The notes: generated by a model from the letters alone, not told the origin. Positions 7,797-56,493 are shown, counted from the first letter of the stretch. The stretch is 64,000 nucleotides of DNA from Cytophagales bacterium (GCA_020627945.1 JAHDFW010000001.1:5603-69602), one strand, 5' to 3'. Made by a program: numbers and translations.

Positions 7797-7903
7797 TAGT
7801 TTCACCATTTTCACACTTGTTGTTTAAAATATTTTAACCATATTTATGATTACTTAACTTAATAAACAAACAATCAAATAACACAACACTAACAAACAAC
7901 AAC

Positions 7904-10927: not shown

Positions 10928-13381
10928 ATGAAAAAAATTTTTACGTTTATAACCATTTTGATGACCATGTTTGTTTCGAAAGGACAAAATGTGGTAGAAT
11001 TTAGTTATGATTTGCCTTGGGTTGGATATTCCAATGTATTCGATCATCCAAACGATGGAGGAGGTTATCTTTGGGGTAGTGCTTGGGCCGTAGAAGACTT
11101 GCAGAGCATTGTTGATTCTACAGGTAATAGCCTTACACTCTATCCAAACTTTAGTACTTATTCACAAAACCTTACAGATCCATATTGGGTTAACCAAGTG
11201 TCAGGGGAAGGTAACAAAGTGCTTGAAGCATCTACCTATGTTGAATTTGATTCAACATATAATAACATAGACTTACTCTGGATGGGTAACGTAGAAGAGT
11301 TTACGATTGACACCAGTAAATATAAAGTTAATGTGTTCATTAAAGCTTTGGATCCAAGTAACTTTTGGCAAGATGCTCTTCTTGGATCAAAGACGGTACC
11401 TCTTACAGGTACTGGAAATTTTTCATTAAGTGCTTTAGCTTCGGAGCTGCCTTCTGGTTTGGTTATACAAGTAGGGTTCAATGTTATTGGCCTTAACGCT
11501 GATTCGGCTCTTGCAGGTGTTCTTGGAAACGTAAAAATTGCACCTCCTTCCAATGTTATTGAATTTAACACTAGCGAAAATTGGATTGGATATATGAATG
11601 TATTTGAAGTTCCTTCAAATGGTGGAGCTTTTGCATTTGGAACTGCATGGGGAGTTCAAGATTTAAAATCTACTTTTGATACGGTGTATAACTGTGTAAA
11701 ACTGCAGCCAAACTTTAATACTTATGCCAATAATCCAACCGACCCTTATTGGGTAAATCAAACAACTTTGGAAGGTAATAAAGAAATGGAAGCATCTACC
11801 TATTTAGATTTAGACACTTCTTATAATGGACATGGGTTAGTTTTTGAAGGTTATGTACAGCATCTTACTATAGATACTACTCTTTATGATGTTAACTTTT
11901 TTATCAAAGCACTTGATCCGAGTAATTCTTGGCAAGATGCACTCGGTGGTTCCAAAATAATTCCAATCACCAGCACAGGTTATTTCTCTATTAGTGCAAC
12001 TGCAGCAGAAATGGCTCCAGGTCTTGTACTACAAGTTGGCTTCAATGTAATCGGGACCAATGCCAACCCAGCCGATGAAGCAATGCTTGGTTCAGTAGTC
12101 ATTGGTTCAGGCCCAGACACAGTAGCACCTGTTCCACTAGTAGCATCTCTTCCTGGTTTAATGGATATGTGTCCTATTACGCCAATCGCTCCTAAAGCAC
12201 TTGACAAAGGAGATACTATAGTTGCAACCACGATGACCTCTTTCCCAATTAGTGAACTAGGAACTACGGTTGTTACTTGGACGTACACTGATGGTGCTGG
12301 TAATACTAGCATGCAAAATCAAAATGTAACTATATCTGGAGTTACGAAAATGCTTACAGAAAGTGCTTGTGAAAGTTATATGTCTCCATCTGGTAAGACT
12401 TATACGATGTCCAATACTTACATTGACACCCTAATCGTAGATAATGACTGTGATACGATATATACTATTAATCTAACCATTAATAGTCCGTCGGACACCA
12501 TGCTTACAGAAACGGCGTGTGATAGTTTTTCATTTGCAGGTATAACTAGAACTTCTACGGGTATGTATTATGATACATTGATGAACCAAAATGGTTGTGA
12601 CAGTATTGTTACATTAGATTTAACAATCAATAACTCTGCTTCAACTATGCTAACCATTAGTGCTTGTAATAGCTACGATTTTGGTGGACAAACAATAACC
12701 ATGACGGGTATCTATTACGACACCTTAATGACTTCTACAAATTGCGATAGCATTGTAACGTTAGACTTAACAATCACTACGTTTGTTGAAACTAACTTAA
12801 CGGAAACTGCCTGTGACAGTTATGAATTTGGTGGAGAAACATTAACCATGACTGGCATCTACAGAGATACATTATCTACTGGTGGAGGATGTGACAGTAT
12901 AATTATTCTTGATCTTACTATTAATGGTGCGATGGCAGCAATCACGTTAAATGGTGAAACCCTTGTAGCAGACTCTGCTGAGTCATATGAGTGGTTAGAC
13001 TGTAACAACTCGTTTAATATAATAAGTGGTGAAACTGGGATGAGTTATTCTCCGACAACCTCTGGAAGCTACGCAGTCTTAGTTTATAACAATGGTTGTG
13101 CTGATACTTCTGCTTGTACTGAAGTAATGTTTGATGGAATTGAGGATTTCGAAAATAGTGTAAGAATTTACCCTAATCCAACAAATGGTACAATCAACAT
13201 TGATGTGAGTCAAGCAAATAATGCTACTATTCAGGTAATTAATGCGTTTGGTCAGCTTATTATGACTCAAGACAATGTTGCCACACAGCAACAACTAGAA
13301 ATCGAAGGACCTGCAGGAATATACTTCGTAAAGATCAATAGCGAAGATAAAACGGCAACCTTTAAAGTGACGAAGTACTAA
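10928..13381 (+). CDS. T9SS type A cargo, adhesin-like: 2 x ~190-aa unknown module, Ig/HYR-like domain, 4 x Cys repeats and C-terminal sorting domain
   Basis: It has a signal peptide. There is an internal duplication (residues ~20-210 and ~210-400 align). An HYR-like stretch VVTWTYTDGAGN is present. The C-terminus is YPNPTNGTINIDV...GIYFVKINSEDKTATFKVTKY. It is a paralogue of 38568-39872. Confidence 0.85.
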   Translation: MKKIFTFITILMTMFVSKGQNVVEFSYDLPWVGYSNVFDHPNDGGGYLWGSAWAVEDLQSIVDSTGNSLTLYPNFSTYSQNLTDPYWVNQVSGEGNKVLEASTYVEFDSTYNNIDLLWMGNVEEFTIDTSKYKVNVFIKALDPSNFWQDALLGSKTVPLTGTGNFSLSALASELPSGLVIQVGFNVIGLNADSALAGVLGNVKIAPPSNVIEFNTSENWIGYMNVFEVPSNGGAFAFGTAWGVQDLKSTFDTVYNCVKLQPNFNTYANNPTDPYWVNQTTLEGNKEMEASTYLDLDTSYNGHGLVFEGYVQHLTIDTTLYDVNFFIKALDPSNSWQDALGGSKIIPITSTGYFSISATAAEMAPGLVLQVGFNVIGTNANPADEAMLGSVVIGSGPDTVAPVPLVASLPGLMDMCPITPIAPKALDKGDTIVATTMTSFPISELGTTVVTWTYTDGAGNTSMQNQNVTISGVTKMLTESACESYMSPSGKTYTMSNTYIDTLIVDNDCDTIYTINLTINSPSDTMLTETACDSFSFAGITRTSTGMYYDTLMNQNGCDSIVTLDLTINNSASTMLTISACNSYDFGGQTITMTGIYYDTLMTSTNCDSIVTLDLTITTFVETNLTETACDSYEFGGETLTMTGIYRDTLSTGGGCDSIIILDLTINGAMAAITLNGETLVADSAESYEWLDCNNSFNIISGETGMSYSPTTSGSYAVLVYNNGCADTSACTEVMFDGIEDFENSVRIYPNPTNGTINIDVSQANNATIQVINAFGQLIMTQDNVATQQQLEIEGPAGIYFVKINSEDKTATFKVTKY
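12347..12937 (+). repeat. In-frame tandem coding repeat, 4 copies (150, 147, 147, 147 nt)
   Basis: The units start at 12347, 12497, 12644 and 12791. The consensus is TMLTETACDSYxFGGxTxTMTGIYYDTLxxxxGCDSIVTLDLTIN, with two conserved Cys per unit. Confidence 0.85.
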
Positions 13382-26870: not shown

Positions 26871-28126
26871 AGATTTTTAACTTTATGATTAATAGAAAAG
26901 AAGAAGTAGCTCTGGAATATCAGCTGATTGGCAATTAGGCCAAGTACAACTCCAGATATTCCAAATTGGATCAATATGGGCTTAGCAAATAGAAGGCTAA
27001 AAACTGCACCCAAAATGTAGGCTATGAAGAGTGGTCTTGTATGCTCTAGGGTTCTTAATAAAAACCTCAAATTAATTCCTACATAAATAAGTACGTATAA
27101 AATTGAGTAACCAACAAATTGATTTCCATAACTCATTAATTCTTTAGAAAAGAAAAATCCTAAAAGCCATTCTCCGTAAAAAGTAAAGAAACACCCTATC
27201 AGAGCAGTCGCAATCGTACCCACCACAACAATTCTTAAAATAAATTTCTTTAACGCTTTCCAACCTGAATCAAAAAGAATCTTGCTTGCGCGAATTGGCG
27301 TATAATTTTCCGCTGCCAAGAAAAGTACATTCAAGACCCCTATTAAATTTTGAATCATTCTAATGGCACCAACAGCGACTGAGCCAAGTACTCCTCCTGC
27401 CACAATTATGAAAAAATTACCTGAGCACCATTGCAAAATAGAAGTCCCCAACAACCATTTTGAATATAACCAATGACGATAAGTTGCTTCTAGAAAAGAA
27501 GGCATATCTACCTTTAATCCAAACCATAATTTCCAGCGATATAAAACCCCTATCCCCTGAAGCCCAACTAGCATTAGAATCACTTGAAAAAGTTCTATTT
27601 TAGAATTAAGAATACCAATTAAACCCAAAGCCAAGAGTTGTCCTCCATATACAATCAAATCTAATTTGGCTGCTTCGAATGAATTACCAGATGCATAACT
27701 CAACTTACGTTGAAACTGTACAGTAAGAAATGTAAAAACAGCTAATTGTAATACAATACCAACTTTAATATCTAGAGTGCCAGGTAAATATTGGTTGCCA
27801 TACACCCAAATAAAAAGCCAAAGCAAAACTGACGTAACGAATACAAATGAGATATGCATTAAGCTCAATTGTTTGATATAATCATGCTTCTGCTTCAATT
27901 CCAGCTTTGGCATAAAGGTATACATTGGTGCTACAATTAAGCTTTCATGCAAACTCCCGAAAAACAATACAATCAGCCAAAGCAATGTAAAATCGCCATA
28001 CAACTCTAATCCCAACTGTTTTACTAAAAAAACTCCTAAAACAAAACTAGTCCCACTTACCAAAGCTTGATCGCCAAGCGTAATCAATTGAGGATATCTT
28101 CTAATATATCTGACTAATTTATACAT
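26867..28126 (-). CDS. Polysaccharide flippase (Wzx-like, MOP superfamily)
   Basis: It is a 419-aa polytopic membrane protein with about 12 TM helices. It begins ...LITLGDQALVSGTSFVLGVFLVKQLG, which is typical of Wzx. It sits inside the polysaccharide operon. Confidence 0.75.
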   Translation of the reverse strand: MYKLVRYIRRYPQLITLGDQALVSGTSFVLGVFLVKQLGLELYGDFTLLWLIVLFFGSLHESLIVAPMYTFMPKLELKQKHDYIKQLSLMHISFVFVTSVLLWLFIWVYGNQYLPGTLDIKVGIVLQLAVFTFLTVQFQRKLSYASGNSFEAAKLDLIVYGGQLLALGLIGILNSKIELFQVILMLVGLQGIGVLYRWKLWFGLKVDMPSFLEATYRHWLYSKWLLGTSILQWCSGNFFIIVAGGVLGSVAVGAIRMIQNLIGVLNVLFLAAENYTPIRASKILFDSGWKALKKFILRIVVVGTIATALIGCFFTFYGEWLLGFFFSKELMSYGNQFVGYSILYVLIYVGINLRFLLRTLEHTRPLFIAYILGAVFSLLFAKPILIQFGISGVVLGLIANQLIFQSYFFFSINHKVKNL

Positions 28127-30398
28127 GATTGAACCTTACTAATTTGGTTAAGCCGTTTATAAGTTTTTTTAACCTGGAATTATTGATATTATATAACCCA
28201 CTTAGGTTAGTACTTTTACTTGTACCATTGAGAACGAGTTTGATATTCGTTATCTTAAACTCTTGAGCAATATAATCTGGATAGGATAAGTATTTGGAAG
28301 GTGTGAAATTCGATCGCACCAAATAAAAACTATGGTCACAGGACTTCATAACCTGCAATACTTCTGGGTTAGACAGCAACATTGGAAGATCAATAATTAC
28401 CAGATCAAAGTTTTGTTTTAGTTCATATAACAAGTGACTCAGTTTTTCCACAAACAAAGAATCTATTTCTGTTCTCCCAGTTAATTGTAATTCATACAGG
28501 CCTGTGCTTTCATTTTTACGTAGTTGTTTCTGCCAATCAAATGTTGAATAACGTATGTCAAAATTTTGGTCTTCTAAATTGCCTTTGATTAAAGGATCAA
28601 CACTCAGAAATAATACAGTCCATCCTGTCCGTAGAAACGATTGACAAAGACCATTTGAAAAATACGTTTTACCTTCTTTTTCCATTCCAGAGGTTATAGC
28701 GATGCTTTGATTTTTCTGAATTCCATTCAACTTACAGAGTGTATTAAACTGATCGAATTGTCTCTGCTTCACTTGGTTATTTTTAGCCCAAGGAAGAACT
28801 CCAAGTACATGTTGTTGCGTATATTTCTCGAGTTCATTACGAGTATCAACCTTGGCCATCAACATAGATTTCAAGAAGACTATACTTACCCCCAGCAGCA
28901 ATCCAATAAAACCGGCCACAATCAACAACAATGATTTTTTAGGAGAAGCTGGGGTAGATGGAATTGTGGCCTGTTGAATTATCCTGTGAAATGCAATATT
29001 AGATGCTTCGGAAATTGCCGCTTCAGTACGTTTCTCGGCCAGAAAATTGAACATCTTTTGGTTTAGCTGAAATTCCCTTTCCAAAATCACCATCTGCTTT
29101 TCTTTCGTAGGTAATCCCTCAAAGGTCTTTTGAGCAAGAACAATCGTCTCTTCAATTTCACCTCGTTTGATACGTAGACTATTTCTGGTATTATGAATAC
29201 TTTCACGTATGTAGTCGGTCAGATCTTTTATTTTTTCATCAATCAATTTAACTTGCTTCTCCTCCTTGGTATACTTCAAAAGCAAGTCTTTCTTTTCGGC
29301 TTGATACATTTTGATCTTCTTAATCAATTCGGTTGAAAGTAAATCATTGAATGCTTCAAAATTTGGAGCTAACTGAAGAAACTCTTTATCCTCATCATCA
29401 ACATACTTAACTAATGAATCTAAGGAGGCCAGATTCATATCTAAGTTGGCTAATTGAATTTTTAGTTGTGCAATCTTGCGGAGTTCTGTTTCAGTTTCTT
29501 GCCGGGTATTAATGATATTATTCTTAAGACGGTAATCCTCTATTTTCCCTTCAGATTCGCGAAGCTTCTTAGAAACTTGCTCCAGTTGCCCATCAATAAA
29601 GTCCACCGTACGACCAGCAGCATTGCTCCTTGTATTGATGTAATCCTCAATATAAATTTTGGTTAAAGTATTTAGTAAATCGGCAGTCTTTTCTGGCACT
29701 TCAGATTTATATGAAACACGAATTACAGGCACATCTTTTTCTACAGCAACTACATCCAATCGACTCGCAACACGCTCCTTAAGGTCTTGAGGATCATTAA
29801 AAATTGTAAGGTATTGATCCTCCAACTGAAAGTTTGGTACGGCGGCAATAATAGAATCAGCTTTAACGACACTAAACTTCCAATTATTAACCACATAATC
29901 TTCCCCAAAAACTCCACTAAAAGCCGCATTATGAAACGTGAAAGGAAATAAAATTGTATAATTCTCATCACTCAGCACATCTATTCGAATCTCCTTATTA
30001 ATCAAAGAACTTGGGATGTTTTCGCTCTTAAATTCAAACGGTTTATTATGATACAACTCTTGAGTTCGAATAACACCAACTCTATAATATGAAGTACCAA
30101 AATCTAATTCTTCTAAAGCTTTTCCAATTAGCAATGATGATTTTAGAAGTTCAACTTCGCCAGCAATCTTATTCACATTAGAAAAGAGATCAAAATCCTT
30201 ATACAAGGTAGCGCTAGATGGTCCCTGACCCAGGTCATCTAGCTTAATTTTAACTGTACTTTCGAATTGCAATGGAGTGTATCTTATTACTCGCAAAGCA
30301 ATTAGTACAGCTATTAAAACACTGGCTAATACTACCAACCACCCACCCCGACGAAATGGTTTAATAATACGCGATATATCCTGCTTTTCTTCTAACAT
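28119..30398 (-). CDS. Polysaccharide co-polymerase / chain-length determinant with degenerate BY-kinase-like C-terminal domain (Wzc/GumC-like)
   Basis: It has an N-terminal TM, then a Wzz-like coiled-coil periplasmic region, then a second TM (LLLIVAGFIGLLLGVSIVFL). The C-terminal P-loop is ITSGMEKEGKT and the Walker B-like motif is LVIIDLPML. There is no C-terminal Tyr cluster. Confidence 0.8.
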   Translation of the reverse strand: MLEEKQDISRIIKPFRRGGWLVVLASVLIAVLIALRVIRYTPLQFESTVKIKLDDLGQGPSSATLYKDFDLFSNVNKIAGEVELLKSSLLIGKALEELDFGTSYYRVGVIRTQELYHNKPFEFKSENIPSSLINKEIRIDVLSDENYTILFPFTFHNAAFSGVFGEDYVVNNWKFSVVKADSIIAAVPNFQLEDQYLTIFNDPQDLKERVASRLDVVAVEKDVPVIRVSYKSEVPEKTADLLNTLTKIYIEDYINTRSNAAGRTVDFIDGQLEQVSKKLRESEGKIEDYRLKNNIINTRQETETELRKIAQLKIQLANLDMNLASLDSLVKYVDDEDKEFLQLAPNFEAFNDLLSTELIKKIKMYQAEKKDLLLKYTKEEKQVKLIDEKIKDLTDYIRESIHNTRNSLRIKRGEIEETIVLAQKTFEGLPTKEKQMVILEREFQLNQKMFNFLAEKRTEAAISEASNIAFHRIIQQATIPSTPASPKKSLLLIVAGFIGLLLGVSIVFLKSMLMAKVDTRNELEKYTQQHVLGVLPWAKNNQVKQRQFDQFNTLCKLNGIQKNQSIAITSGMEKEGKTYFSNGLCQSFLRTGWTVLFLSVDPLIKGNLEDQNFDIRYSTFDWQKQLRKNESTGLYELQLTGRTEIDSLFVEKLSHLLYELKQNFDLVIIDLPMLLSNPEVLQVMKSCDHSFYLVRSNFTPSKYLSYPDYIAQEFKITNIKLVLNGTSKSTNLSGLYNINNSRLKKLINGLTKLVRFNHV

Positions 30399-34366: not shown

Positions 34367-36529
34367 TTACTCCTTCCCACTAATCAATTTTGCTTTCTCC
34401 ACCATTCTGATATACTCGGAGCGATACCCATTTTTATCTTCGCCTTTTGCTTTGTTTGCTAATTCTAAGGCATGTGAATAAGATGACTCTCCTTTATACT
34501 TTGAATCTCTTAGCAGCATTCCAAATTCAGCAACTGAAGTCGCCATAGTGTAATTTAAAGAAGGACTCGATTTAGGGTTGTTTTTTACAACCGCCTGAAT
34601 CAATTTGCTCTTGTCTTCCTTTGGTGGTTTATATCGGAATTTTACCGTAAGAACCTCATTAGAATAAGTTGTGTCATATGTTGGGGTTGGAACGGTATAT
34701 TTTAATTCACTTTGATTTAATGAACCCTCTGTTCCAGTCGGTACCAATTCATACAAAGCAGTAATTGTATGCCCACTTCCTAACTCTCCTGCATCTTTGG
34801 TATCGTCATCGAAATCCTCACGAGCAAGTAAACGGTTTTCATACCCAATTAATCTGTAGCTACTTACTACCAGCGGGTTGAATTCTAATTGAAGCTTCAC
34901 ATCTTTGGCAATGGTTTGTAAAGTCCCTCCCATTTCCGTTACTAGTACTTTCTTTGCTTCAAGTACATTATCAATATAATTGTAGTTTCCGTTTCCGTTA
35001 TCAGCAATTTGCTCCATGGTCCCATCCTGAATATTTCCTGTACCAAATCCCAAAACCGACAAAAAGATTCCAGACTTACGTTTCTCCTCAATTAGTTCGA
35101 TCAGTTCATCTTGATCTGACATACCAACATTAAAATCTCCGTCTGTTGCAAGAATTATACGGTTATTTCCTTTTTTAGAAAAATTCTCTAAAGCTGTTTT
35201 ATAAGCCAATTCAATTCCTTCTCCACCCGCAGTTGAACCTCCTGCTTCCAAACGGTCTAAAGCTTCCATAATTTTTGGCTTATCATTACCAGCCGTAGGC
35301 TCAAGTACCAGACCTGCAGCGCCTGCATAAACTACAATCGAAACTCGATCTTCTTCTCTTAGCTCATTGGTAAGCATTCTAAATCCTTTTTTCAACAGAT
35401 CTAATTTATCTCCGGAACTCATAGACCCAGACACATCAATAAGGAATACTAGATTATTCTTTGGAAGTTGAGCTTTTTCGATGCTTTTTCCTTTAAGACT
35501 TATTTGTACTAACTTATGTTTCTTGTTCCATGGACAATCACCTAATTCAGTTGTTATCGAAAAGGGAATATCATCTTTAGGTTCTGGTAAATCATATTGA
35601 AAATAGTTGATTAGCTCTTCGATCCGAACTGCATCTTTTGGTGGCATTGATCCATCATTTATATGGCGACGCACATTGGTATAAGAGGCTCCATCTACAT
35701 CAATGGAAAAAGTAGAAACAGGTTCACTAAGCACTACTTTGAAATCATTTTCTTTGATTGAATTGTAATCTTCTCCTTTCAAATTTTCATCATATTCAAA
35801 TAAAACATCTGCACCTTTATTGGATTTTCTGACTTTTTCATCCATAGCGAAGTAAGACTCATTTTCCACAATAGCTAAGCCTATGCCTTGAGATGATACG
35901 GACCAAGTTCCTGCTTTTGCTCCGTCTACAGTACCTTGTAAATCATATGAACCGTTAGATGAATACCCATATAATGTTTTATCAGCCATGCCTACCGTTG
36001 TTTCAAATTCATATCGTGAATCTAATGTGTAAGCAACAGTTACCGAATCCATAATAAAATTCGGACTTGAATCCACTAGAGCTATATAAGTCTCCGCTTC
36101 TGCGAGTTGGTCCTCCTTGGAATCAATTTTAGTTTCGGTAGTTAGATCAGACTCTCGCTCTGACTCTTGAACCATCGTAATCTTTTCGACCTTAGTAATT
36201 TCTTGGTTGTTAGGCTCGATGGGTTCCACATATCGAAGTTTACTAAATTGTTCAGGGTTTTCAATTATCTCCAGACTTTCCGAGGCATATTGGGAGTCAG
36301 AGCCTTTATTTATTATTTTATTGCTACTGGTCATTGGCATGTAATTAGGCAATAACACCAGTACTCCAGCTATAATCACTAAAGAAGCTGCGGCCGACCA
36401 ATAAACCCATAATCGGCGGCTCTTTTTCTTATTCAAAGCTGCCTCTATATTTGACCAATTCTCTGGATTTGGTACTTCCAATTCCATTTGGTCGCGGTTG
36501 TCTTTTATATATTGTTCTAAATTTTTCAT
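34367..36529 (-). CDS. Membrane anti-sigma-like protein with extracytoplasmic vWA domain (YfbK-like: vWF_A N-terminal, VWA and DUF3520)
   Basis: It has a short cytoplasmic N-terminus and one TM (LWVYWSAAASLVIIAGVLVLL). The sequence VSTFSIDVDGASYTNVRRHINDGSMPPKDAVRIEELINYFQY is present. The VWA MIDAS motif is VFLIDVSGSMSSGDKL. The DUF3520-like tail is SYRLIGYENR. It lies directly downstream of an ECF sigma gene. Confidence 0.8.
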   Translation of the reverse strand: MKNLEQYIKDNRDQMELEVPNPENWSNIEAALNKKKSRRLWVYWSAAASLVIIAGVLVLLPNYMPMTSSNKIINKGSDSQYASESLEIIENPEQFSKLRYVEPIEPNNQEITKVEKITMVQESERESDLTTETKIDSKEDQLAEAETYIALVDSSPNFIMDSVTVAYTLDSRYEFETTVGMADKTLYGYSSNGSYDLQGTVDGAKAGTWSVSSQGIGLAIVENESYFAMDEKVRKSNKGADVLFEYDENLKGEDYNSIKENDFKVVLSEPVSTFSIDVDGASYTNVRRHINDGSMPPKDAVRIEELINYFQYDLPEPKDDIPFSITTELGDCPWNKKHKLVQISLKGKSIEKAQLPKNNLVFLIDVSGSMSSGDKLDLLKKGFRMLTNELREEDRVSIVVYAGAAGLVLEPTAGNDKPKIMEALDRLEAGGSTAGGEGIELAYKTALENFSKKGNNRIILATDGDFNVGMSDQDELIELIEEKRKSGIFLSVLGFGTGNIQDGTMEQIADNGNGNYNYIDNVLEAKKVLVTEMGGTLQTIAKDVKLQLEFNPLVVSSYRLIGYENRLLAREDFDDDTKDAGELGSGHTITALYELVPTGTEGSLNQSELKYTVPTPTYDTTYSNEVLTVKFRYKPPKEDKSKLIQAVVKNNPKSSPSLNYTMATSVAEFGMLLRDSKYKGESSYSHALELANKAKGEDKNGYRSEYIRMVEKAKLISGKE

Positions 36530-47486: not shown

Positions 47487-50090
47487 ATGAGAACTTTATT
47501 CATTTGCTTGATTCTGGTCAGTTCAAATCTTCTGGCAAACATTAATAATACTAATCCTGCTCACATAACCCCCTCTTTGCTTCAGCACATGAAAGATCAC
47601 CCAAAAGATCTTCATAGAATTCGAGTAGAGTTTAAGGATAATGTGGATTGCTACGGACTTAATCAGTCGTTTAAGGACAATAAGACTCCTATTTCTGAAC
47701 GTAAGAAAACTGTGATTCGAATGTTAATGCAGCAAGCCAATAAAAGTCAGGCATCCCTACTTGAACTTATAAACGCTTACAAAGATGAAGATGTTAGAGA
47801 AGTTCAATCCTTTTGGGTTACGAACATTGTGGTAATGGAAGCATCAACTTCTTTAATAAATCAAATTAGAAAACTTCCAGAAGTGAACCTAATCGATGCT
47901 GAGTATAACAGAATCCAAATGCATGATCCCATTATTCCATCCACAGAGCGTAATAATAAAACCGCTAACCCTAATGGAATCGAACCTGGCTTAGCCGCAA
48001 TTAACGCTCCTAAACTTTGGGCTATGGGTTATACTGGAAAAGGCACTTTAGTTTATAATTATGATACTGGGGTTTGGCCAACACACCCAGCATATTCTGA
48101 TCGTTTTCTTGCACATAGACTACCACTTTCTCAAAGCTGGATTGGATTTTTTAGCGACGTCCCTAATGGTACTATAAGTGATCATGGAACGCACACTTTA
48201 GGTACAATTGCTGGGTTAGACAGAGCAACTTCTGATACTATTGGCGTAGCGTTCAACGCTTATTGGATTGCCAATGATTATGTAACTTCAACAGTAGAGG
48301 AGTTACCTCCATTGACTAACATGATCGAAGCTTTTGAATGGGCCTTAAACCCAGATGGGGACACGTCAACGGTTCATGATATCCCAGATGTAATTAACAA
48401 TAGTTGGCGATGGCTCGATGATCCAGATACGGTACACTGCGGAGGTTTTGTGGTAAACTTGATGAATGCGATTGAAGCAGCTGGAATTGCAAATATTTTT
48501 TCAGGAGGAAATTCAGGACCCGACAACACTACGGTTAATTCACCTCAACGCATCAATACAAGTGAGGTTAATACTTTTAGCGTAGGAAGTATCAATGGTA
48601 ATGTAGCTTTCCCTCACCCAATTAGTACATTTTCAACTTTAGGACCAACACAATGCGCGGGAACGGGGTCTTTAGCAATACATCCAGAAGTTGTTGCTCC
48701 AGGTCAAAATGTAAGATCTGCTTGGGGAACGGATGAATACAATAGCATTTCAGGAACAAGTATGGCTGCTCCTCACGTTTCTGGTGCTGTTTTACTTCTC
48801 AAGGAAGCATTTCCAGACTTATCGGGTGAAGATTTGTTATGGGCACTTTACAACACCGCCATTGATTTAGGAGATACTGGTGAAGACAATACTTTTGGTA
48901 AAGGAATCATTGACGTGTATGCTGCTTATCAAGAACTTGCTATGTCACATACTCCAAGAGATCCTAATCAAATAAAATATGATCTGGCCATTTCGGAAAT
49001 CACATCCCCTGTGGAATCTGTAGTCAACTGTGATACTGAACATCCAATATCGCTATATATCAAAAACCATGGTGATACAACGGTTACTTCGGCAACTGTA
49101 TATTATTACTTCAAAGACGAAGCAGTAAATTCATTTAACTGGAGCGGCACGTTAAACAGCGGAGACTCTGTTTTGGTAAATCTTCCTGCTATCACTACAA
49201 CCAAACTTGGTGAATTGGAATTAATAACTCAAGTTTCGTCATCCAACAATGAACAGGAGTACGACATTTACAACAATTATCGCCTAATCCATATCAACAG
49301 AATTCCAGAATTTGATATTCCTTTTTCAGAAGATTTTGAGAATGGGTTTGCAAATCATGGATGGGCCTTGGACAACCCAGATAATTCAATCACATGGGAT
49401 ACGGCAACTACCGAAGGTTTAGAAGGTACAATTTCTGCTGCTCTTAAACATTACAGGTACGATCCAGCAGAATTACAACGTGATGGTCTAATAACACCTC
49501 AATTGATTCTTCCAGCCGATGCTAATGTCACATTGGAATTCGATATTTCCTACCAAATGGTCCATGTATCACTTGCTGAAAGGCTTATTGTTTCTATTTC
49601 TTCCGACTGTGGAAATACATATTCAGAAATATTTAACGAAAGCGAAGGGATCAATACTCACGATACGATTAAAGCGGATTTCGTGCCTTGGCACAATGGA
49701 CAATGGGAAACTAAAAGTTTAGACATCTCGGATTTCGCTGGAAACACCATTGTAGTGAAATTTGAAACTGAAAATAAAAGCGGAAACAACTTGTATTTAG
49801 ATAACGTCCTAATTTATAACGGGGATCGCCCATTGGGAATTAATTCAAACCAGAAGAGCAAATTTCAAGTTTACCCTAACCCAACCGAAAATATCTTTAC
49901 TATAAAATTTGAAAGTTTCAATGCCTCGACGTCCGTTCAACTTTTGGATTTATCTGGAAGATTGGTTAGAAAGGTTAACATTTCTTCTACAGCAGAGGAC
50001 ATAGATATTACTGATCTAAATTCAGGAATCTATCTTATTGAAGTACGTCAGGGCGACTGGATCGAAAGACGTAAGATTGTTAAAAAATAA
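47487..50090 (+). CDS. S8 family serine peptidase (subtilase) with T9SS type A C-terminal sorting domain
   Basis: The catalytic triad contexts are YDTGVWPTHP (Asp), DHGTHTLGTIAG (His) and GTSMAAPHVSGAVLLLKE (Ser). The N-terminal propeptide is I9-like. The C-terminus is FQVYPNPTENIFTIKF...SGIYLIEVRQGDWIERRKIVKK. Confidence 0.92.
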   Translation: MRTLFICLILVSSNLLANINNTNPAHITPSLLQHMKDHPKDLHRIRVEFKDNVDCYGLNQSFKDNKTPISERKKTVIRMLMQQANKSQASLLELINAYKDEDVREVQSFWVTNIVVMEASTSLINQIRKLPEVNLIDAEYNRIQMHDPIIPSTERNNKTANPNGIEPGLAAINAPKLWAMGYTGKGTLVYNYDTGVWPTHPAYSDRFLAHRLPLSQSWIGFFSDVPNGTISDHGTHTLGTIAGLDRATSDTIGVAFNAYWIANDYVTSTVEELPPLTNMIEAFEWALNPDGDTSTVHDIPDVINNSWRWLDDPDTVHCGGFVVNLMNAIEAAGIANIFSGGNSGPDNTTVNSPQRINTSEVNTFSVGSINGNVAFPHPISTFSTLGPTQCAGTGSLAIHPEVVAPGQNVRSAWGTDEYNSISGTSMAAPHVSGAVLLLKEAFPDLSGEDLLWALYNTAIDLGDTGEDNTFGKGIIDVYAAYQELAMSHTPRDPNQIKYDLAISEITSPVESVVNCDTEHPISLYIKNHGDTTVTSATVYYYFKDEAVNSFNWSGTLNSGDSVLVNLPAITTTKLGELELITQVSSSNNEQEYDIYNNYRLIHINRIPEFDIPFSEDFENGFANHGWALDNPDNSITWDTATTEGLEGTISAALKHYRYDPAELQRDGLITPQLILPADANVTLEFDISYQMVHVSLAERLIVSISSDCGNTYSEIFNESEGINTHDTIKADFVPWHNGQWETKSLDISDFAGNTIVVKFETENKSGNNLYLDNVLIYNGDRPLGINSNQKSKFQVYPNPTENIFTIKFESFNASTSVQLLDLSGRLVRKVNISSTAEDIDITDLNSGIYLIEVRQGDWIERRKIVKK

Positions 50091-51492: not shown

Positions 51493-52086
51493 ATGTTACA
51501 ACGAATATTTCTTTTAAGTCTGACAATTACCATAACCAGTATGATTGCTAAAAGCCAGGTAGCAAGTGAAGTTTGCGCACTTAATATTGGTACGGAATGT
51601 CCTTCTGCGAAAGTTCAACAAGTGGATGGAACGGTGATAGACCTGAAAGAGTATTGTGCAGATCAACCTACGGTTTTGGTTTTTTATCGTGGAGGCTGGT
51701 GTCCATATTGTACCGACCATTTAGCGGCTCTAAATAGTGTCGAAAATGAAATTAAGGAAATGGGATATAATGTTGTAGCAATAAGTCCCGACGATGTTAA
51801 AACGTATCCTGAGTTTCTGAAAAAAGAAAAATTGAATTACACATTGATCTCTGATTATCAAGATGAGGCTATGAAAGCCTTTGGAGTAGCATTTCACCCT
51901 TCTGAAAAGCGTATTGGGATTTATTCCCGTGTAATGAAAAAACCGGAAGAGAACTTACTTGTTCCCGTTCCGGCTATATTCGTAATCAAGGATGGTGTTA
52001 TCCTTTATCGTTATGTTAATCCTAACTACTCCGTAAGAATTTCGAACGACATGCTTATTGCTGCGTTAAAATCCTTAAAGAAATAG
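51493..52086 (+). CDS. Peroxiredoxin-like / AhpC-TSA family thiol-disulfide oxidoreductase
   Basis: The sequence VLVFYRGGWCPYCTDHLAAL has a CxxC in a thioredoxin-fold context. It has a signal peptide. Confidence 0.8.
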   Translation: MLQRIFLLSLTITITSMIAKSQVASEVCALNIGTECPSAKVQQVDGTVIDLKEYCADQPTVLVFYRGGWCPYCTDHLAALNSVENEIKEMGYNVVAISPDDVKTYPEFLKKEKLNYTLISDYQDEAMKAFGVAFHPSEKRIGIYSRVMKKPEENLLVPVPAIFVIKDGVILYRYVNPNYSVRISNDMLIAALKSLKK

Positions 52087-52092
52087 TAACAG

Positions 52093-52578
52093 CTACTTAA
52101 CTTTAGCAGCTAAAGCATAAAGGTTTTTGCTTGCGGATAATCCACGTGAAGTTATTAGCGTTTTATTTACTTCATAGGCTAGACGGCCCTCTTTTGATAC
52201 TAAATTTATATCGCCATTGGCCGTGCTCTGATCGTCAGTTACAAATAGAGTTTTACCTTTTGCAAAATCCCCTAATTCACTAGACAAATCCGAGTTTTTT
52301 CCAACAAAAACCATATTACAACTAGTCGCTTCGCTTTTATTCGTAAGTTTTACAACCTTGATATTAATGTTACTTCCACCAAAACTTGCAATGGTATTAA
52401 GTACATTAAAAATTTGGTCATTTTTATAAACACCAATCTTTGTAGGACCGTCAGACTTCCACTCAACAAGTTCGGATAACTTATATAATAAGGTACCCTT
52501 AACGTTGTCGTTTTGAGCAAACGATGTTACTACAAAACCCATGCACAACAGTCCGGTTAATATTGATTTTAATTTCAT
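52093..52578 (-). CDS. YfiR-family (DUF4154) periplasmic protein
   Basis: It has a signal peptide. The pattern VKGTLLYKLSELVEWKSDG...CNMVFVGKNS...KTLFVTDDQSTANGDINLVSKEGRLAYEVNKTLITSRGLSASKNLYALAAKV follows the YfiR/DUF4154 consensus layout. Confidence 0.7.
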   Translation of the reverse strand: MKLKSILTGLLCMGFVVTSFAQNDNVKGTLLYKLSELVEWKSDGPTKIGVYKNDQIFNVLNTIASFGGSNINIKVVKLTNKSEATSCNMVFVGKNSDLSSELGDFAKGKTLFVTDDQSTANGDINLVSKEGRLAYEVNKTLITSRGLSASKNLYALAAKVK

Positions 52579-52651
52579 CTTAAATTATTTTTTTACCCAA
52601 ATTAATATGATCTAAAATCATGCCAATTCGAATTGGTTATAAAACGGAATA

Positions 52652-53785
52652 TTACATTCCAAGAGCGAGCTGAAAGCTCAATACATTGTCTGCAGGATTA
52701 GTTCCTTTGCTGTTTACAATCTCATAACCAACTTTAAACGACATTGTGTTAGAGAAGTTATAGTTTGCACCAATGTAAATTCTAGCTCGGTCATCATCAA
52801 GGTTTCCAGAATCAAGATTGATAAAATCATAACGTAAAACTGGCTCAATACGATCAGTTACTAGGTAAGAAAACAAAATTGTAGCTCCATTTCTGTTAAT
52901 AGTAGTATCTCCAGCTTGCATATTAGCCATGTTGTACTCTCCCCAGATACTCATACGCTCTGTATTATATACTGCGTCAAATGCACCAATGAACAGATTT
53001 TGTTGTCCGTCTGCAGTGTACTTTCCATTATAAACACCAGCTCCAAACTCTAATCCTGAAATAGCGGCACCAAGACGTCCACCAACGGCTTTATCTCTAG
53101 CGTTTTTATCTTGCATATTCCCTCTCAATCCACGAATTCCAGAACCTTCATTTCCTTCCAGTCCGTTTACAACAAATGCAGAATAGAACACATCTAGTTC
53201 TTCACTTGCCGCAACTTTACCACGAGCCTGAATACCTACTTCACCCCATGCTGAAGGAGTAATCTCACGGTTAATATAAGGTCTTGAAATTGCCTTGTTA
53301 ATATATTCAGGATACAAGTACTCGTTAAACGTATTAATTGGTGTTAAGAATTTACCAGTACGGATTACAAATGCGTCATTAAACTTGTAATCAAGCTGTG
53401 CATAACGTGCGTCAATATCTTTTCCACCATGCTCATATTCCAACTGAATTTCAGCTACAACATTGCTTCCGATGTTTGAACCTAAAAGAACGTTGTAATA
53501 GTGATTATCGAAAGAACTAGGCTTACCATCTTTCTGATAGTGAAAAAATTCGTTGGTTGTATATCCGTGAATTACACTCTCAGATTGGTTCTCACTCAAA
53601 CGATATCCAAATCCACCTACATCTCCTCTTCCTACGCTTTTAAGATCCAACATGGATTCTAGGTCCATTTGCAACAAATCTTTAAGCTCATTCTCATCTT
53701 GTGCTTGAGCAGACACACAAAACGCTGCTGGAATTAGCGCAGTAATAAGCGCTCGTTTCCCTAAATTGTATAAGTTACGTTTCAT
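52652..53785 (-). CDS. Putative outer-membrane beta-barrel porin
   Basis: It has a signal peptide (ALIPAAFCVSAQAQ). Alternating amphipathic strands with Gly/Tyr/Asn-rich turns run throughout. The family was not resolved by eye. Confidence 0.6.
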   Translation of the reverse strand: MKRNLYNLGKRALITALIPAAFCVSAQAQDENELKDLLQMDLESMLDLKSVGRGDVGGFGYRLSENQSESVIHGYTTNEFFHYQKDGKPSSFDNHYYNVLLGSNIGSNVVAEIQLEYEHGGKDIDARYAQLDYKFNDAFVIRTGKFLTPINTFNEYLYPEYINKAISRPYINREITPSAWGEVGIQARGKVAASEELDVFYSAFVVNGLEGNEGSGIRGLRGNMQDKNARDKAVGGRLGAAISGLEFGAGVYNGKYTADGQQNLFIGAFDAVYNTERMSIWGEYNMANMQAGDTTINRNGATILFSYLVTDRIEPVLRYDFINLDSGNLDDDRARIYIGANYNFSNTMSFKVGYEIVNSKGTNPADNVLSFQLALGM

Positions 53786-53868
53786 AATTATTTATGGTTG
53801 TTTATATTTTATTACATGTTCGTATGAGATTGACTCTCGCCAATCTTCCAAATCCTATTTGAACGATT

Positions 53869-55743
53869 CTATTCCGTCCTAAAGAAGTCTACTGCTTTTT
53901 TGAGTTGGTCCACCTGACCATTTAAATCCTCTGCAAAATGTTCGATTTTACCTGATAGTGAGGCATTTTGTTGTACCACCTTGTTCAACTCCTGAATGGA
54001 ACCATTAATTTGGTTTGCTCCATTTTGTTGTTCTCCACTAGAAATAGCAATATCATTAACAAGTGAAGCTGTTTTAACTATTTCGGGAACAATTTCTGAA
54101 AGAAGTCGTTCTGATTTCTGCGCTAATTGTAAACTTCCTGCAGAAGCTTCATCAATTGCTGTAGCAGCCTCTCGGCTCCGTTCAGAGAGTCTACGAATTT
54201 CTGCTGCAACAACCGCAAACCCTTTTCCATGTTCCCCTGCACGTGCTGCCTCAACAGCAGCGTTTAATGCCAATAAATTTGTCTGACGTGCAATGTCTCC
54301 AATGATCGAAATCTTTTCTGTAATAGTGCGTATTGAATCTAATGAATTAGAAACGAACTCGCTATTTTCACTAAGTGTATTAGATGCAGTTTTTGCTATT
54401 TTTCCTGTTTCAATAGCGTTTTGTGCATTTTGGTCAATATTAGCCATCATCTCTTCCATCGAAGCAGATAATTGCTCGGCCGAACTAGCTTGAGATGTAG
54501 CTCCCGTAGCTACTAGATTAGACGAGCTCTTAAGTTCATTACTTGAATTCCAAACGCCATTAGAGGCCTGCTGGACACTTACAATGGTGTTTTTAAGTTT
54601 GGCAGACATTTGATTCATAGCACCTAGCACTGAATCTTCTTCTGCCTTTGCATTCATATTGAAGGTAAGGTTACCTTGTGAAATTTCCCTTGCCATAGTC
54701 AACACTTCTATCGGCTCTCCCCCCATTTGACGTAATATTCTACGTGCAATCCAAATACCTAAAAATAACGAAATTACAAAAGTAACCAAGGTAATAATTG
54801 TACTCCATATGAACGAATAAAGAGCTTCGCTCATTAGGTTAGATGCTTTATCTTGAATAGCCTCCAAAATAGATTCATCAACTTCCTTCAACTGCTCAAT
54901 TTTATTATTCATTATTTCATTAGCCGTTGCAGCCGAAATTCCATAACCACCAACAAGTGCCGTATCCAACAATTTTGTCCTCATATCTACCACTTGCGCC
55001 TCATAATCAGAATTCAGTATTTCATCGAGCATTGCAGCATGTGCATCGTCACTATATTCTCTAAAAATCTTTTGATATATTGCCTGTTCGCTAATTCTAA
55101 AAAGATAATCATCGTAAGCTGCTCCAGTAAGGTTATTAGAAATACAGCCACTCAGCATTCCATACTGTTCCAAACTAACAGCTTCTTTACTTCGTAAGAA
55201 ATTAACATAGGAAATCACTAGAGCCGTTACTTCAGCATCGGTACTAAGTTTTGACGAATAACCGATTAGATCTAGCATCTCCAATTGCAAATCAGAATAA
55301 AATGCCACTGCTTGCTCTTTAGAATAAGCAAACCCTTGAATTTGCTCACGAGTCTCTTTCAAAAAGCTTTGATCTGATCTAAATTTCGTAAGAAGTTGAT
55401 TGAATTCATCACCATAAACCTCATGGTCAATGGAGTTAATATATTGAATAGCTAAACTGTCTAAAGAATCTACTTGAATCTGTTGTGAAGCAAGTTGGTC
55501 TCCAAATAACATCCCACCCGAAGAAATAAATAGGTTGGTGGTAGCCCTTTCCTGTTGTAAACTGTGCGATATCGCACTTACTTTACTTGAAATATTCATC
55601 AAATCATCCAATTTTGTCATCGAACGATACTTCTGAACGTTATCAGTAATGTTTAAAATAGAATACACCAATGTACACAACATCGGCAGCAAAAGTATCA
55701 GCAATAACTGCTGATTTAACTTAAGTTTATCAAGTATATTCAT
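53869..55743 (-). CDS. Methyl-accepting chemotaxis-type receptor with periplasmic NIT (nitrate/nitrite-sensing-type) domain and HAMP
   Basis: The order is TM1, then a NIT-like segment ([23 protein letters not shown]), then TM2 ([22 protein letters not shown]), then HAMP. The MCP hairpin tip is [43 protein letters not shown]. Confidence 0.88.
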
Positions 55744-55944
55744 AGCTGTTCTCTACGTACAAATACAACCGCTTCTCACACTGTTGTATCAAGCACCAAA
55801 CTAAACTTAGAGAAAATAACTGTAGAATCTAATGAAGCAAACTTATATTTCGATGAAATTTAAACTTTAATCGTTTAAACAAATTATTACAATAGTAATC
55901 TACATTAGGTATACTAACGTTTACAAATTGTATAACATCAAAGG

Positions 55945-56493
55945 CTAGTACCTAAGTCCAGCAAATTTCTTTATTTCGGCGAAATCTAAATGATCATCAA
56001 GATGCTTACCATAATGAGCTTTCTCCACGTTAAAATCTTCGTCTATTAGAAAGTCTGCAGCGATGGTATATTTGGAGGCATCGTTATCTTCTGGGAGATT
56101 TAATTCTGCAGTTTCTTTCCTAACCTTACTAAAACTTGAATACAATATAGTACTAGCTACTTTCAGAAAAGATGATTCTACACCGTATTGTGTGTACACC
56201 TTCTTTTCAGGGTCTCCAATCAATGGCCATGGACTTATTCCTTGATGAAACGCACTTTTTGCTAGTTTATCGGAAGAACTTTCAAACATAAAAACAATTT
56301 GTAACCCTGATTTCTTAAGCCTGAGGTTGTTCGCCATAAGTTTATGGACTCTCCTATTACAAAACGGACAATTTACATTTCTATAAAAACTAAGTAAAAT
56401 CTTACTTCCCTTGATATCCGAAAGCTTAAAATCATTACCATAAATATCCTTCATGGTAAAATCTATTGCAGATTGTCCTTTTGTTAATTTCAT
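55945..56493 (-). CDS. Redoxin / AhpC-TSA-like thioredoxin-fold protein
   Basis: The sequence ILLSFYRNVNCPFCNRRVHKL has a CxxC motif in a peroxiredoxin-like context. Confidence 0.75.
   Translation of the reverse strand: MKLTKGQSAIDFTMKDIYGNDFKLSDIKGSKILLSFYRNVNCPFCNRRVHKLMANNLRLKKSGLQIVFMFESSSDKLAKSAFHQGISPWPLIGDPEKKVYTQYGVESSFLKVASTILYSSFSKVRKETAELNLPEDNDASKYTIAADFLIDEDFNVEKAHYGKHLDDHLDFAEIKKFAGLRY

Follow-up and report, generated by a model that had tools for sequence, protein, structure and literature searches.

To our knowledge, signalling across the envelope of Gram-negative bacteria is understood for few routes, i.e. from a TBDR to an anti-sigma factor, through RcsF, and from YfiB via YfiR to YfiN. 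In the last of these, the N-terminal segment of YfiB binds YfiR, on a surface that also binds YfiN (PMC4655355). Malone et al. (2012; PMC3375315) had noted, in silico, further outputs connected to the YfiR/YfiN core, namely HK, GGDEF-EAL and MCP. Literature searches on DUF4154, on YfiR with MCPs and on YfiR with TBDRs returned no work on the module other than that in silico remark. The trio NF053590/NF053591/NF053592 (a TOL_0244-family TBDR, a TOL_0243-family YfiR-like protein and a YfiR-like-associated sensor kinase) is catalogued, and no experimental study of it was found in the searchable literature.

We analysed a 64,000-nt stretch of DNA (the window) from a Cytophagales-like MAG of an algae metagenome (88.6% complete), in which genes for a chemoreceptor (MCP), a porin and a YfiR-like protein (DUF4154) form a triad. 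The locus and its relatives showed a further tight pairing of YfiR-like proteins, with porins of ordinary appearance. With a probability of roughly 0.6, the triad is a sensory input module that spans the envelope; it would be the porin-type variant of systems built from an outer-membrane protein, a YfiR-like protein and an inner-membrane transducer.

The three genes and their products

Three minus-strand ORFs were confirmed in the window in the order MCP, porin and DUF4154, separated by gaps of 83 and 73 nt. Neither gap contained a terminator-like hairpin, and one (52090..52112, minus strand) overlapped the stop codon of the DUF4154 gene; a hairpin at the 3′ end of the triad and none between its genes is weak evidence for a single transcription unit. 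An octamer 95 nt upstream of the MCP start, TAAGTTTG (55838..55845, minus strand), matched exactly the Bacteroidota −7 promoter consensus TAnnTTTG, and there was no exact match in the two gaps. This candidate was noted by eye, directly from the sequence, because a sigma-70 promoter scan performed no better than on shuffles and Bacteroidota promoters differ; it is weak evidence for a promoter of the MCP gene. Among sequencing runs that contain the locus there were DNA runs from the algae metagenome and no RNA runs.

The chemoreceptor (53869..55743, minus strand; 624 aa) comprised TM1 (aa 9–27), a NIT domain (aa 59–297, 54853..55569, minus strand; PF08376, E 5.8e-31, 109 bits against a cut-off of 24.9), TM2 (aa 315–333), a HAMP-like linker and an MCP signalling domain (aa ~448–620, 53884..54402, minus strand; MCPsignal PF00015, E 1.2e-27) with a canonical hairpin tip. 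The NIT domain was assigned to the periplasm because hydrophobic segments flank it, and the protein belongs to the transmembrane class of MCPs, having the conserved hairpin tip, a pair of TM segments and a ligand-binding domain in the periplasm. No HAMP match appeared in Pfam at E ≤ 0.01; as the segment next to TM2 aligned with HAMP regions, both of paralogues and of Tar/Tsr-type models, a HAMP is likely, without profile confirmation. CHASE8, GGDEF, NF007423 and NF053592 gave no match in this transducer.

The porin (52652..53785, minus strand; 377 aa) is distantly OprO/P- or Porin_4-like. Its sole Pfam match was a weak one to DUF2490, with no match to PF07396 or PF13609 at E ≤ 0.01; some of its homologues, and those weakly, matched Porin_O_P (PF07396) or Porin_4 (PF13609). 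Since searches of PDB sequences with a profile of 80 porin homologues found nothing, and with the DUF4154 protein nothing useful, a fold search was needed. The AF2 model of the porin (pLDDT 88) was a 16-stranded barrel, and its best Foldseek matches in the PDB were to OmpT/OmpU, Omp32, OmpC/F, PorB and DcaP (TM 0.55–0.71), i.e. to both general and anion-selective 16-stranded porins. Neither Plug nor TonB_dep_Rec matched the protein, and there was no OmpA-like gene in the operon.

The DUF4154 protein (52093..52578, minus strand; 161 aa with a signal peptide; PF13689, E 1.3e-17) gave an AF2 model (pLDDT 85.7) whose top 15 PDB fold matches were all YfiR (TM 0.63–0.73), the substrate-binding proteins 3LKV, 3LFT and 8WGL ranking after them. 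Its best NCBIfam match was NF053591 (52.4 bits, below the cut-off of 125); the true YfiR equivalog NF053586 scored 16.6 bits against a cut-off of 85. Thus the gene order, the NIT domain with its canonical tip, the beta-barrel and the YfiR-like third protein described in an earlier note on this DNA all held, and of its NIT-HAMP-MCP label NIT and MCP were supported by Pfam and HAMP by alignment. Also as claimed there, che genes were absent from the 64 kb: home-made HMMs for CheA, CheW, CheR, CheB and CheD gave no matches on the window's contig. The genome had further been called T9SS/gliding-type. T9SS cargo domains were found in the window, but the best score against the GldM model was 25.7 bits, short of its cut-off of 180, so T9SS cargo is claimed here and gliding is not.

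The YfiR fold raises the question of a switch as in Pseudomonas, where DUF4154 would repress the receptor until misfolding under redox stress, or outer-membrane stress, removed it, and the porin would have no ligand role. The YfiR mechanism is established (PMC3375315, PMC4655355), the fold is confirmed here, and two AhpC/TSA-type redoxin (peroxiredoxin) genes flank the triad. However, the mature protein, like its Bacteroidota relatives, has a single cysteine (residue 87), so both disulfide pairs of YfiR are absent and redox control through them was rejected. The redoxin genes were not conserved at the orthologous locus on metagenome contig L045 (see below), for which reason a functional role for them was rejected too, and at the outer membrane the partner is a porin instead of a peptidoglycan-binding lipoprotein. 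Such a switch is therefore very unlikely.

Conservation of the porin–DUF4154 pair and of an N-terminal tag

Among 40 genomes of the same order only weak porin homologues (~30% identity) were found, and the sole other genome of the genus had no close one; conservation was therefore sought in metagenome and GTDB contigs. An orthologous NIT-MCP/porin/DUF4154 triad in the same gene order was present on the unrelated contig L045, with identities of 62% and 43%, the MCP being 43% identical over its full length, and with different flanks. Porin and DUF4154 genes were adjacent, in that order, in 34 of 48 related loci; the 34 belonged to Bacteroidota, Planctomycetota, “Deltaproteobacteria” and Sericytochromatia, and their gaps were mostly 0–24 nt. 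The conserved core is thus the porin-then-DUF4154 pair.

Beside these 34 pairs the transducer was an MCP in 14 loci and a SiaA-like HAMP-PP2C (NF038263, 205–237 bits) in 10, in varied gene orders and several phyla. In Ekhidna the pair lay inside a full che cluster, CheW-MCP-porin-DUF4154-MCP-ParA-CheW-CheB-CheA, and in one locus a DUF4154-PP2C fusion directly followed the porin. With ~7 MCPs in ~3,300 genes of the present genome, chance would place far fewer than one MCP in the 68 flanking positions; the pair adjoins MCPs far more often than by chance. DUF4154 also occurs naturally fused to transducers of the HK or PP2C kind, which shows that it serves such proteins as their periplasmic input.

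These counts also bear on whether an ordinary MCP might merely lie upstream of a conserved pair that has a purpose of its own, such as porin regulation or envelope homeostasis, with no signalling through the receptor. Ten of the 34 pairs had no recognisable adjacent transducer, in several Cyclobacteriaceae the next gene encoded an M20 peptidase, and the gaps in the window are wider than the porin–DUF4154 gap of most relatives. Against this stand the MCP or PP2C neighbours in 24 of 34 loci, the triad kept at 43–62% identity between different flanks, the pair embedded among che genes in Ekhidna, the DUF4154–transducer fusions, and a second NIT-MCP and DUF4154 pair in the same genome (contig C28). 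A coincidental neighbourhood is accordingly improbable, and these observations argue for the envelope-spanning input module.

The porin carries an acidic N-terminal tag, predicted to be periplasmic (aa 33–50, ELKDLLQMDLESMLDLKS; 53636..53689, minus strand), followed by a family-invariant GxFGxxL. A tag of the type [IL]SLEELLxMDLE was conserved through much of the porin family; the window's porin had a degenerate form, ELKDLLQMDLESMLDL, and relatives had ISLEELLEMDLEK. TBDRs encoded upstream of DUF4154 genes carried the same motif (MSLEELMNIEV). In the present genome a regular expression for the core of the tag matched two of 2545 ORFs, the window's porin and a DUF4154-linked TBDR, both adjacent to DUF4154 genes; in 21 other genomes it was found in 8–9 of the nine TBDRs directly upstream of DUF4154, as against one of ~480 other ORFs. 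The expression had been written after examples were seen, and the set of 21 relatives was fetched afterwards. Because porins and TBDRs that partner DUF4154 share this small tag, it is the tag and not the barrel that is pointed to as the signalling element, and as a short peptide it is directly testable for binding. It cannot be the sole link, since a large Ekhidna-type porin clade lacks the LEELL motif and still keeps its DUF4154 neighbour.

Tentatively, the acidic tag (consensus ~MSLEELLxhDh) might mark outer-membrane barrels of two unrelated architectures, TBDRs with 22 strands and porins with 16, as belonging with YfiR-like proteins, so that tag, YfiR-like protein and transducer would form a general route of signalling from the outer to the inner membrane. 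In non-flagellated Bacteroidota and other phyla this route might feed chemosensory arrays and SiaA-like PP2C phosphatases, and a plain diffusion porin could act on behalf of a chemoreceptor, either sensing or reporting the state of the outer membrane. This generalisation is possible rather than probable.

The barrel and the NIT domain could instead serve a solute-sensing relay, in which the porin would admit a particular small anion (e.g. nitrate, nitrite or phosphate) and either NIT would bind it directly or DUF4154, a half periplasmic-binding-protein fold, would bind and present it, as maltose-binding protein does to Tar. The NIT profile match is solid, some porin homologues match the phosphate-selective Porin_O_P, and the fold matches of the porin include the anion-selective Omp32. 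The fold of YfiR is similar to the N-lobe of type I binding proteins (PMC4655355), in keeping with the substrate-binding-protein matches of the model, and the third NIT-MCP of the genome is followed by an Alginate_exp-type barrel gene. However, a NIT sensor was present in two of 35 porin–DUF4154 loci, the window included; this census of NIT-type triads (the window and L045) rests on porin-centred loci, a homologue search with the NIT region having returned the query itself as sole match. The window's NIT domain is divergent (109 bits, against 193 for a paralogue on contig C12), its porin itself reaches no Pfam porin model, no genes for assimilating or respiring nitrate or nitrite adjoined the triad, and the tag common to porin and TBDRs is left unexplained. 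The NIT domain of chemoreceptor PA4520 bound neither nitrate nor nitrite, and no NIT-mediated nitrate taxis was found in two pseudomonads (PMC6381276). The suggestion of nitrate or nitrite sensing in the earlier note is thus unsupported, and a solute relay is unlikely.

Chemosensory clusters elsewhere in the genome

Two che clusters, which supply CheA/CheW and CheR/CheB genes, were found on other contigs of the genome, C28 and C13. The order in the former was CheA-CheW-DUF4154-NIT-MCP-MCP-CheR-HK-CheD-CheB-PP2C-RR, the RR being CheY-like, and its NIT-MCP was the closest paralogue of the window's MCP (52% identity in the cytoplasmic part, 37% across the whole protein). The signalling domains of the genome's seven MCPs, i.e. 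that of the window and six others, aligned without gaps, and the seven appear to be of the same length class. The CheA of C28 rather than that of C13 is most likely the partner of the window's MCP, an assignment for which paralogue similarity is the sole basis. A copy resembling the NF053590/NF053591/NF053592 trio was also found, on contig C167.

With chemotaxis-type kinase clusters present on other contigs, the receptor is an orphan within the 64 kb only, and for the genome it is not. The earlier note had held it to be an orphan with an unknown downstream partner and had named a che cluster pairing with it elsewhere as grounds for giving that up; a genome search for Che homologues supplied one, containing the closest paralogue and a DUF4154 gene of its own. 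The analysis corrects both “orphan MCP” and “nitrate sensor”, annotations that readily suggest themselves.

Proposed mechanism and comparison with known systems

In the envelope-spanning module that we propose, the 16-stranded porin would expose its short acidic tag in the periplasm, and the secreted YfiR-fold protein would link this tag with the NIT domain on the periplasmic side of the receptor, by shuttling between the two or bridging them. The receptor's signalling state would follow that of the porin or the outer membrane, regulation presumably running in that direction. The periplasmic domains of the partner transducers are unrelated (NIT, ~170-aa 4HB-like, YfiN-type or unrecognised), which is awkward for a specific interface between DUF4154 and the sensor. 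The receptor, having no kinase of its own, would join arrays of CheA and CheW encoded elsewhere, most likely in the C28 cluster. Since no FlhA gene was found in the genome, the output is probably not flagellar, and regulation through phosphatases and partner switching, or control of surface behaviour, is more likely; in a genome that is 88.6% complete, flagellar genes may still have escaped detection.

The locus would tie a YfiR-like input to CheA/CheW pathways and to PP2C phosphatases of the partner-switch kind in a bacterium that bears T9SS and in which no flagellar export genes were detected. The porin/YfiR-like pair, recurring beside chemoreceptors and phosphatases, looks like an unstudied route from the outer membrane to inner-membrane sensors.

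Among described proteins and systems, OprO/OprP-type porins (PF07396) share the predicted 16-stranded barrel, but the window's porin does not match their profile. In SiaABCD, a membrane PP2C partner switch of P. aeruginosa, the resemblance lies in the SiaA-like HAMP-PP2C transducers found beside other pairs, in the SiaC-family gene preceding the Reichenbachiella pair and in the PP2C gene near the end of the C28 cluster; the window's transducer is an MCP and not SiaA, and none of SiaB, SiaC and SiaD was identified next to it. As in binding-protein-dependent chemoreception (MBP-Tar, RBP/GBP-Trg and DppA-Tap of E. coli), a soluble binding-protein-like periplasmic protein is here proposed to modulate a transmembrane MCP. 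In contrast to those proteins, DUF4154 is half a binding-protein fold with no demonstrated ligand, and it is genetically coupled to a porin, which has no counterpart there.

YfiBNR (TpbB/DgcN; HmsCDE in Yersinia; P. aeruginosa, E. coli) likewise encodes a secreted YfiR-fold protein with an inner-membrane transducer and an outer-membrane partner. The transducer there is a CHASE8/PAS-HAMP-GGDEF cyclase and here a NIT-MCP; the outer-membrane partner is an OmpA/Pal-like peptidoglycan-binding lipoprotein there and a 16-stranded porin here; the two conserved cysteine pairs of YfiR are missing here; and the output is c-di-GMP synthesis there and, we infer, CheA/CheW in trans here. Thus, of the YfiBNR-like tripartite module first suggested for this locus, a functional unit related to YfiR systems stands, supported by the triad, the pair, the second NIT-MCP/DUF4154 pair and the shared tag, and the porin as YfiB equivalent does not, as it is not an OmpA-like lipoprotein.

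The NF053590–NF053592 trio differs in that the porin here has no plug or TBDR domains, the sensor is not of the NF053592 type, and all scores in the window are below the curated cut-offs. It resembles the triad in having a barrel gene directly upstream of DUF4154 with a membrane transducer adjacent, in the MSLEELM-type N-terminal tag on the barrel (degenerate in the window's porin), and in that the window's DUF4154 scores 52 bits with NF053591 as against 17 with NF053586. We read the triad as a porin-type variant of this catalogued outer-membrane-protein/YfiR-like/transducer module, feeding a non-flagellar chemosensory pathway.

The receptor, porin and YfiR-like genes

Three co-directional genes with short gaps (83 and 73 nt) were confirmed on the minus strand of the window. 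They encoded a NIT-MCP receptor (53869–55743, 624 aa, Pfam NIT and MCPsignal), a porin (52652–53785, 377 aa, recognized by its homologues and predicted barrel) and a DUF4154/YfiR-like protein (52093–52578, 161 aa, PF13689, E 1.3e-17). Residues 59–297 of the receptor matched Pfam NIT PF08376 with E 5.8e-31 and 109 bits (cut-off 24.9), and MCPsignal PF00015 was found at E 1.2e-27 (Pfam). Flanking hydrophobic segments (residues 9–27 and 315–333) indicated that the NIT domain was periplasmic, and the canonical signalling hairpin tip was seen, both as the earlier note had proposed. That note had also read the receptor as NIT-HAMP-MCP: the NIT and MCP parts stood, and no HAMP was reported by Pfam at E ≤ 0.01, yet the segment after TM2 could be aligned with HAMP regions, both in paralogues and in NCBIfam models of the Tar/Tsr type.

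The porin had no Pfam family of its own in a Pfam search; among its 115 homologues, several matched Porin_O_P (PF07396) or Porin_4 (PF13609), and the nearest named relatives were Cytophagales (Cyclobacteriaceae, Reichenbachiella, Ekhidna). Modelled with AlphaFold from 80 homologues (pLDDT 88.1), the protein was predicted to be a 16-stranded barrel, which bore out the porin assignment; the best PDB matches of the barrel were OmpT/OmpU, Omp32, OmpC/OmpF, PorB and DcaP (TM 0.55–0.71). For the model of the DUF4154 protein (pLDDT 85.7), the top 15 PDB matches were all YfiR crystal structures, in line with its assignment.

No che gene was detected on the contig of the window with home-made HMMs, in agreement with their reported absence from the 64 kb. 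T9SS cargo domains (Por_Secre_tail twice, CHU_C once) and T9SS cargo proteins at 3340–5232, 10928–13381 and 47487–50090 supported the T9SS part of the claim of a T9SS/gliding-type genome. The window also encoded a GNVR/Wzz chain-length determinant (28119–30398) and a 720-aa vWF_A/VWA/YfbK_C protein (34367–36529, minus strand). The reads holding the locus came from an algae metagenome.

Conservation of the porin–DUF4154 pair and a common tag

Contexts of porin homologues were compared for seven proteins and 45 loci from GTDB species genomes, the loci being annotated with HMMs from this genome's own proteins and spot-checked by Pfam and NCBIfam. A DUF4154 gene lay immediately 3′ of the porin gene in 34 of 48 loci, with gaps mostly of 0–24 nt; three of the remaining loci stopped at a contig edge and two had a nearby DUF4154 gene in another arrangement. 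Such pairs occurred in Bacteroidota (Cytophagales, Bacteroidales), Planctomycetota (Pirellulales, Sedimentisphaerales), “Deltaproteobacteria” and Sericytochromatia. An MCP adjoined the pair in 14 loci, which cannot be due to chance since MCPs made up ~0.2% of this genome's genes. A SiaA-like HAMP-PP2C phosphatase adjoined it in 10 loci (NF038263, 205–237 bits), one of them with a DUF4154-PP2C fusion directly behind the porin, and ten pairs had no recognisable transducer neighbour. The Ekhidna pair was inside CheW-MCP-porin-DUF4154-MCP-ParA-CheW-CheB-CheA. In a Reichenbachiella MAG (L046, 2882–7210), a SiaC-family (PF09345) gene stood immediately 5′ of porin–DUF4154–MCP, connecting the cassette with partner switching of the SiaABCD type.

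The entire triad was also conserved: an unrelated metagenome contig (L045) carried NIT-MCP–porin–DUF4154 in identical order among different flanking genes (porin 62% and MCP 43% identical to those of the window). On a DUF4154 tree the window copy grouped with that of L045 and then with the copies of the porin's next-closest relatives, indicating that the pair was inherited as a unit. Coincidental adjacency of the triad genes is thus unlikely, given the conservation of the pair across loci and the general association of DUF4154 with transducers. AhpC/TSA-family thiol peroxidase/redoxin genes, one with a signal-peptide-like N-terminus, lay on both sides of the window triad (51493–52086, plus strand; 55945–56493, minus strand). 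A redox switch of the YfiR type is unlikely, because the mature DUF4154 protein had a single cysteine and the flanking peroxiredoxin genes were not kept beside the L045 triad. Sensing of nitrate or nitrite by the NIT domain, as suggested earlier, was not supported: NIT accompanied the pair solely in the window and L045, the window domain was divergent, and neither anion was bound by the only NIT chemoreceptor domain with a published test (PMC6381276).

Past the signal peptide, many porins of the family carried a short acidic tag, “[IL]SLEELLEMDLEK..”, and after it an invariant GxFGxxL. The tag was “DIFDMDLDELMEVDI” in planctomycete porins and a degenerate “ELKDLLQMDLESMLDL” in the window porin. 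The strict core pattern was matched by 31 of 80 family members and a relaxed one by 42; further members had looser LxxLL-type acidic segments, and the Ekhidna-type clade had an acidic “DDDFDATVEED” stretch only, without the tag. TonB-dependent receptors (TBDRs) encoded directly 5′ of DUF4154 genes had the same motif in the same place, e.g. “FSLADLMNIEV” in this genome (contig C167) and “MSLEELMQIQI” and “MSLDELMDIQV” in others. The core pattern occurred in 2 of 2545 ORFs of this genome, namely the C167 TBDR and the window porin. In a later test set, which drew 51 DUF4154 loci from 21 further genomes in the order, “MS[LI]E[ED]L[LM]” was present in 8–9 of the 9 TBDRs directly 5′ of DUF4154, and the strict pattern in a single unrelated ORF among 491. 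Because the N-terminal segment of YfiB, the outer-membrane partner in YfiBNR, binds YfiR on a surface that also binds YfiN (PMC4655355), the tag is a natural candidate for a docking peptide.

DUF4154 and chemosensory genes elsewhere in the genome

DUF4154 can be described as a general accessory of membrane transducers. Besides the window copy (NIT-MCP–porin–DUF4154, contig C201), six further genes were found, giving seven in this genome: within a che cluster beside a NIT-MCP (C28); in TBDR–DUF4154–CHASE8/HAMP kinase–RR–RR/PAS kinase (C167); in DUF4154–TPR protein–SiaA-like PP2C (C11); before a HAMP/GAF protein (C26); fused to a histidine kinase and followed by an RR-PP2C (C172); and alone with a PP2C nearby (C76). 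Fusions to a kinase or PP2C recurred in relatives, “Rosetta-stone” evidence that DUF4154 provides the periplasmic input to a transducer. N-terminal periplasmic DUF4154 was fused to histidine kinases or PP2C in L027 (C172, 10904–13120), L077 (10222–12144, behind a porin of the family studied) and L127–L130. A recurrent module without an outer-membrane partner comprised DUF4154, a ~395-aa protein and a ~610-aa membrane PP2C (L025, 2953–6447; also L114, L118, L123, L135, L142 and L144, representing several families within the order). For the single module checked, that of C11, the ~395-aa protein had TPR repeats and the PP2C was SiaA-like.

The receptor had been called an orphan, a description overturned by a whole-genome search, which gave three CheW domains, seven MCPs and che clusters on C28 and C13. 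The C28 cluster (13.5 kb) read CheA–CheW–DUF4154–NIT-MCP–HAMP-MCP–CheR–HK–CheD–CheB–PP2C (SpoIIE)–single-domain response regulator. Its CheA gene was interrupted by the contig end, and its NIT-MCP ORF spanned an N stretch (L012, ~7805–8100), so that the apparent 730-aa length and C-terminal tail were unreliable. The C13 cluster (L013, 3–4633) read CheB–CheA–unknown protein (196 aa)–CheR, directly followed by a BLUF blue-light sensor gene (4223–4633), a hint that a Che-like pathway takes light as an input here, where no flagellar export gene was detected. No gap was needed to align the signalling domains of the seven MCPs, which thus appear to share one length class. Closest to the window MCP was the in-cluster NIT-MCP of C28 (52% identity in the cytoplasmic part; 37% collinear identity over the entire protein, including the NIT domain). 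FlhA (PF00771) was not found in this 88.6%-complete genome, and the pathway of the window receptor is therefore probably not flagellar. About 36 PP2C (SpoIIE) proteins in 3.9 Mb (home-made HMM) suggest a very large partner-switch network; one of them (C11; L025, 4675–6447) and one of a relative (L070) were checked and scored as SiaA-like membrane phosphatases.

A third NIT-MCP, the strongest NIT match of the genome (193 bits), preceded a 446-aa Alginate_exp-type outer-membrane barrel on C12 (L029, 8910–12134), a second pairing of NIT chemoreceptor and outer-membrane channel, without DUF4154. On C185 (17029–21854), a distant porin paralogue (388 aa, E 1.8e-10 to the family HMM) was divergent to an adjoining CheR/CheB-methylesterase pair without a receiver domain.

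Proposed mechanism and known systems

Genes, folds, conservation, tag and che clusters were observed; the contacts and sign of regulation we infer as follows. The YfiR-like protein would have the periplasmic tag of the porin and the NIT domain of the receptor as alternative or simultaneous partners, and the chemoreceptor would be under control of the porin state or outer-membrane state. It is also possible that DUF4154 presents a ligand to the receptor in the style of a binding protein. As to kinase choice and output, the receptor would presumably act via a CheA/CheW pair whose genes lie elsewhere, C28 being the likeliest place, and would pass its signal to a CheY-like regulator and a PP2C phosphatase, not to a flagellar motor. 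Weak points of this mechanism are the heterogeneous partner sensors (NIT in the window, ~170-residue 4HB-like in Cytophagales, YfiN-type in two distant loci), the tagless Ekhidna clade and the pairs lacking a transducer neighbour.

A literature search found no DUF4154 papers beyond the YfiR structures. The general YfiR-MCP theme is already recorded: Malone et al. (2012) described in silico a YfiR/YfiN core also wired to kinase, GGDEF-EAL and MCP outputs (PMC3375315). A TBDR/YfiR-like/kinase trio is catalogued in NCBIfam (NF053590/NF053591/NF053592), which the C167 trio resembled with scores under the cut-offs. The window triad differed from that trio in having no TBDR and in scoring under the cut-offs. 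It differed from YfiBNR in having no YfiN-type cyclase, YfiB or cysteine pairs, so that of the YfiBNR-like module proposed earlier the likeness was retained and the membership was not. Nevertheless, the triad would work like both systems, and the most apt description is a YfiR-like module that has a porin as its partner and a NIT chemoreceptor for a transducer. New here are the porin partner and a tag spanning two barrel families, both directly testable.
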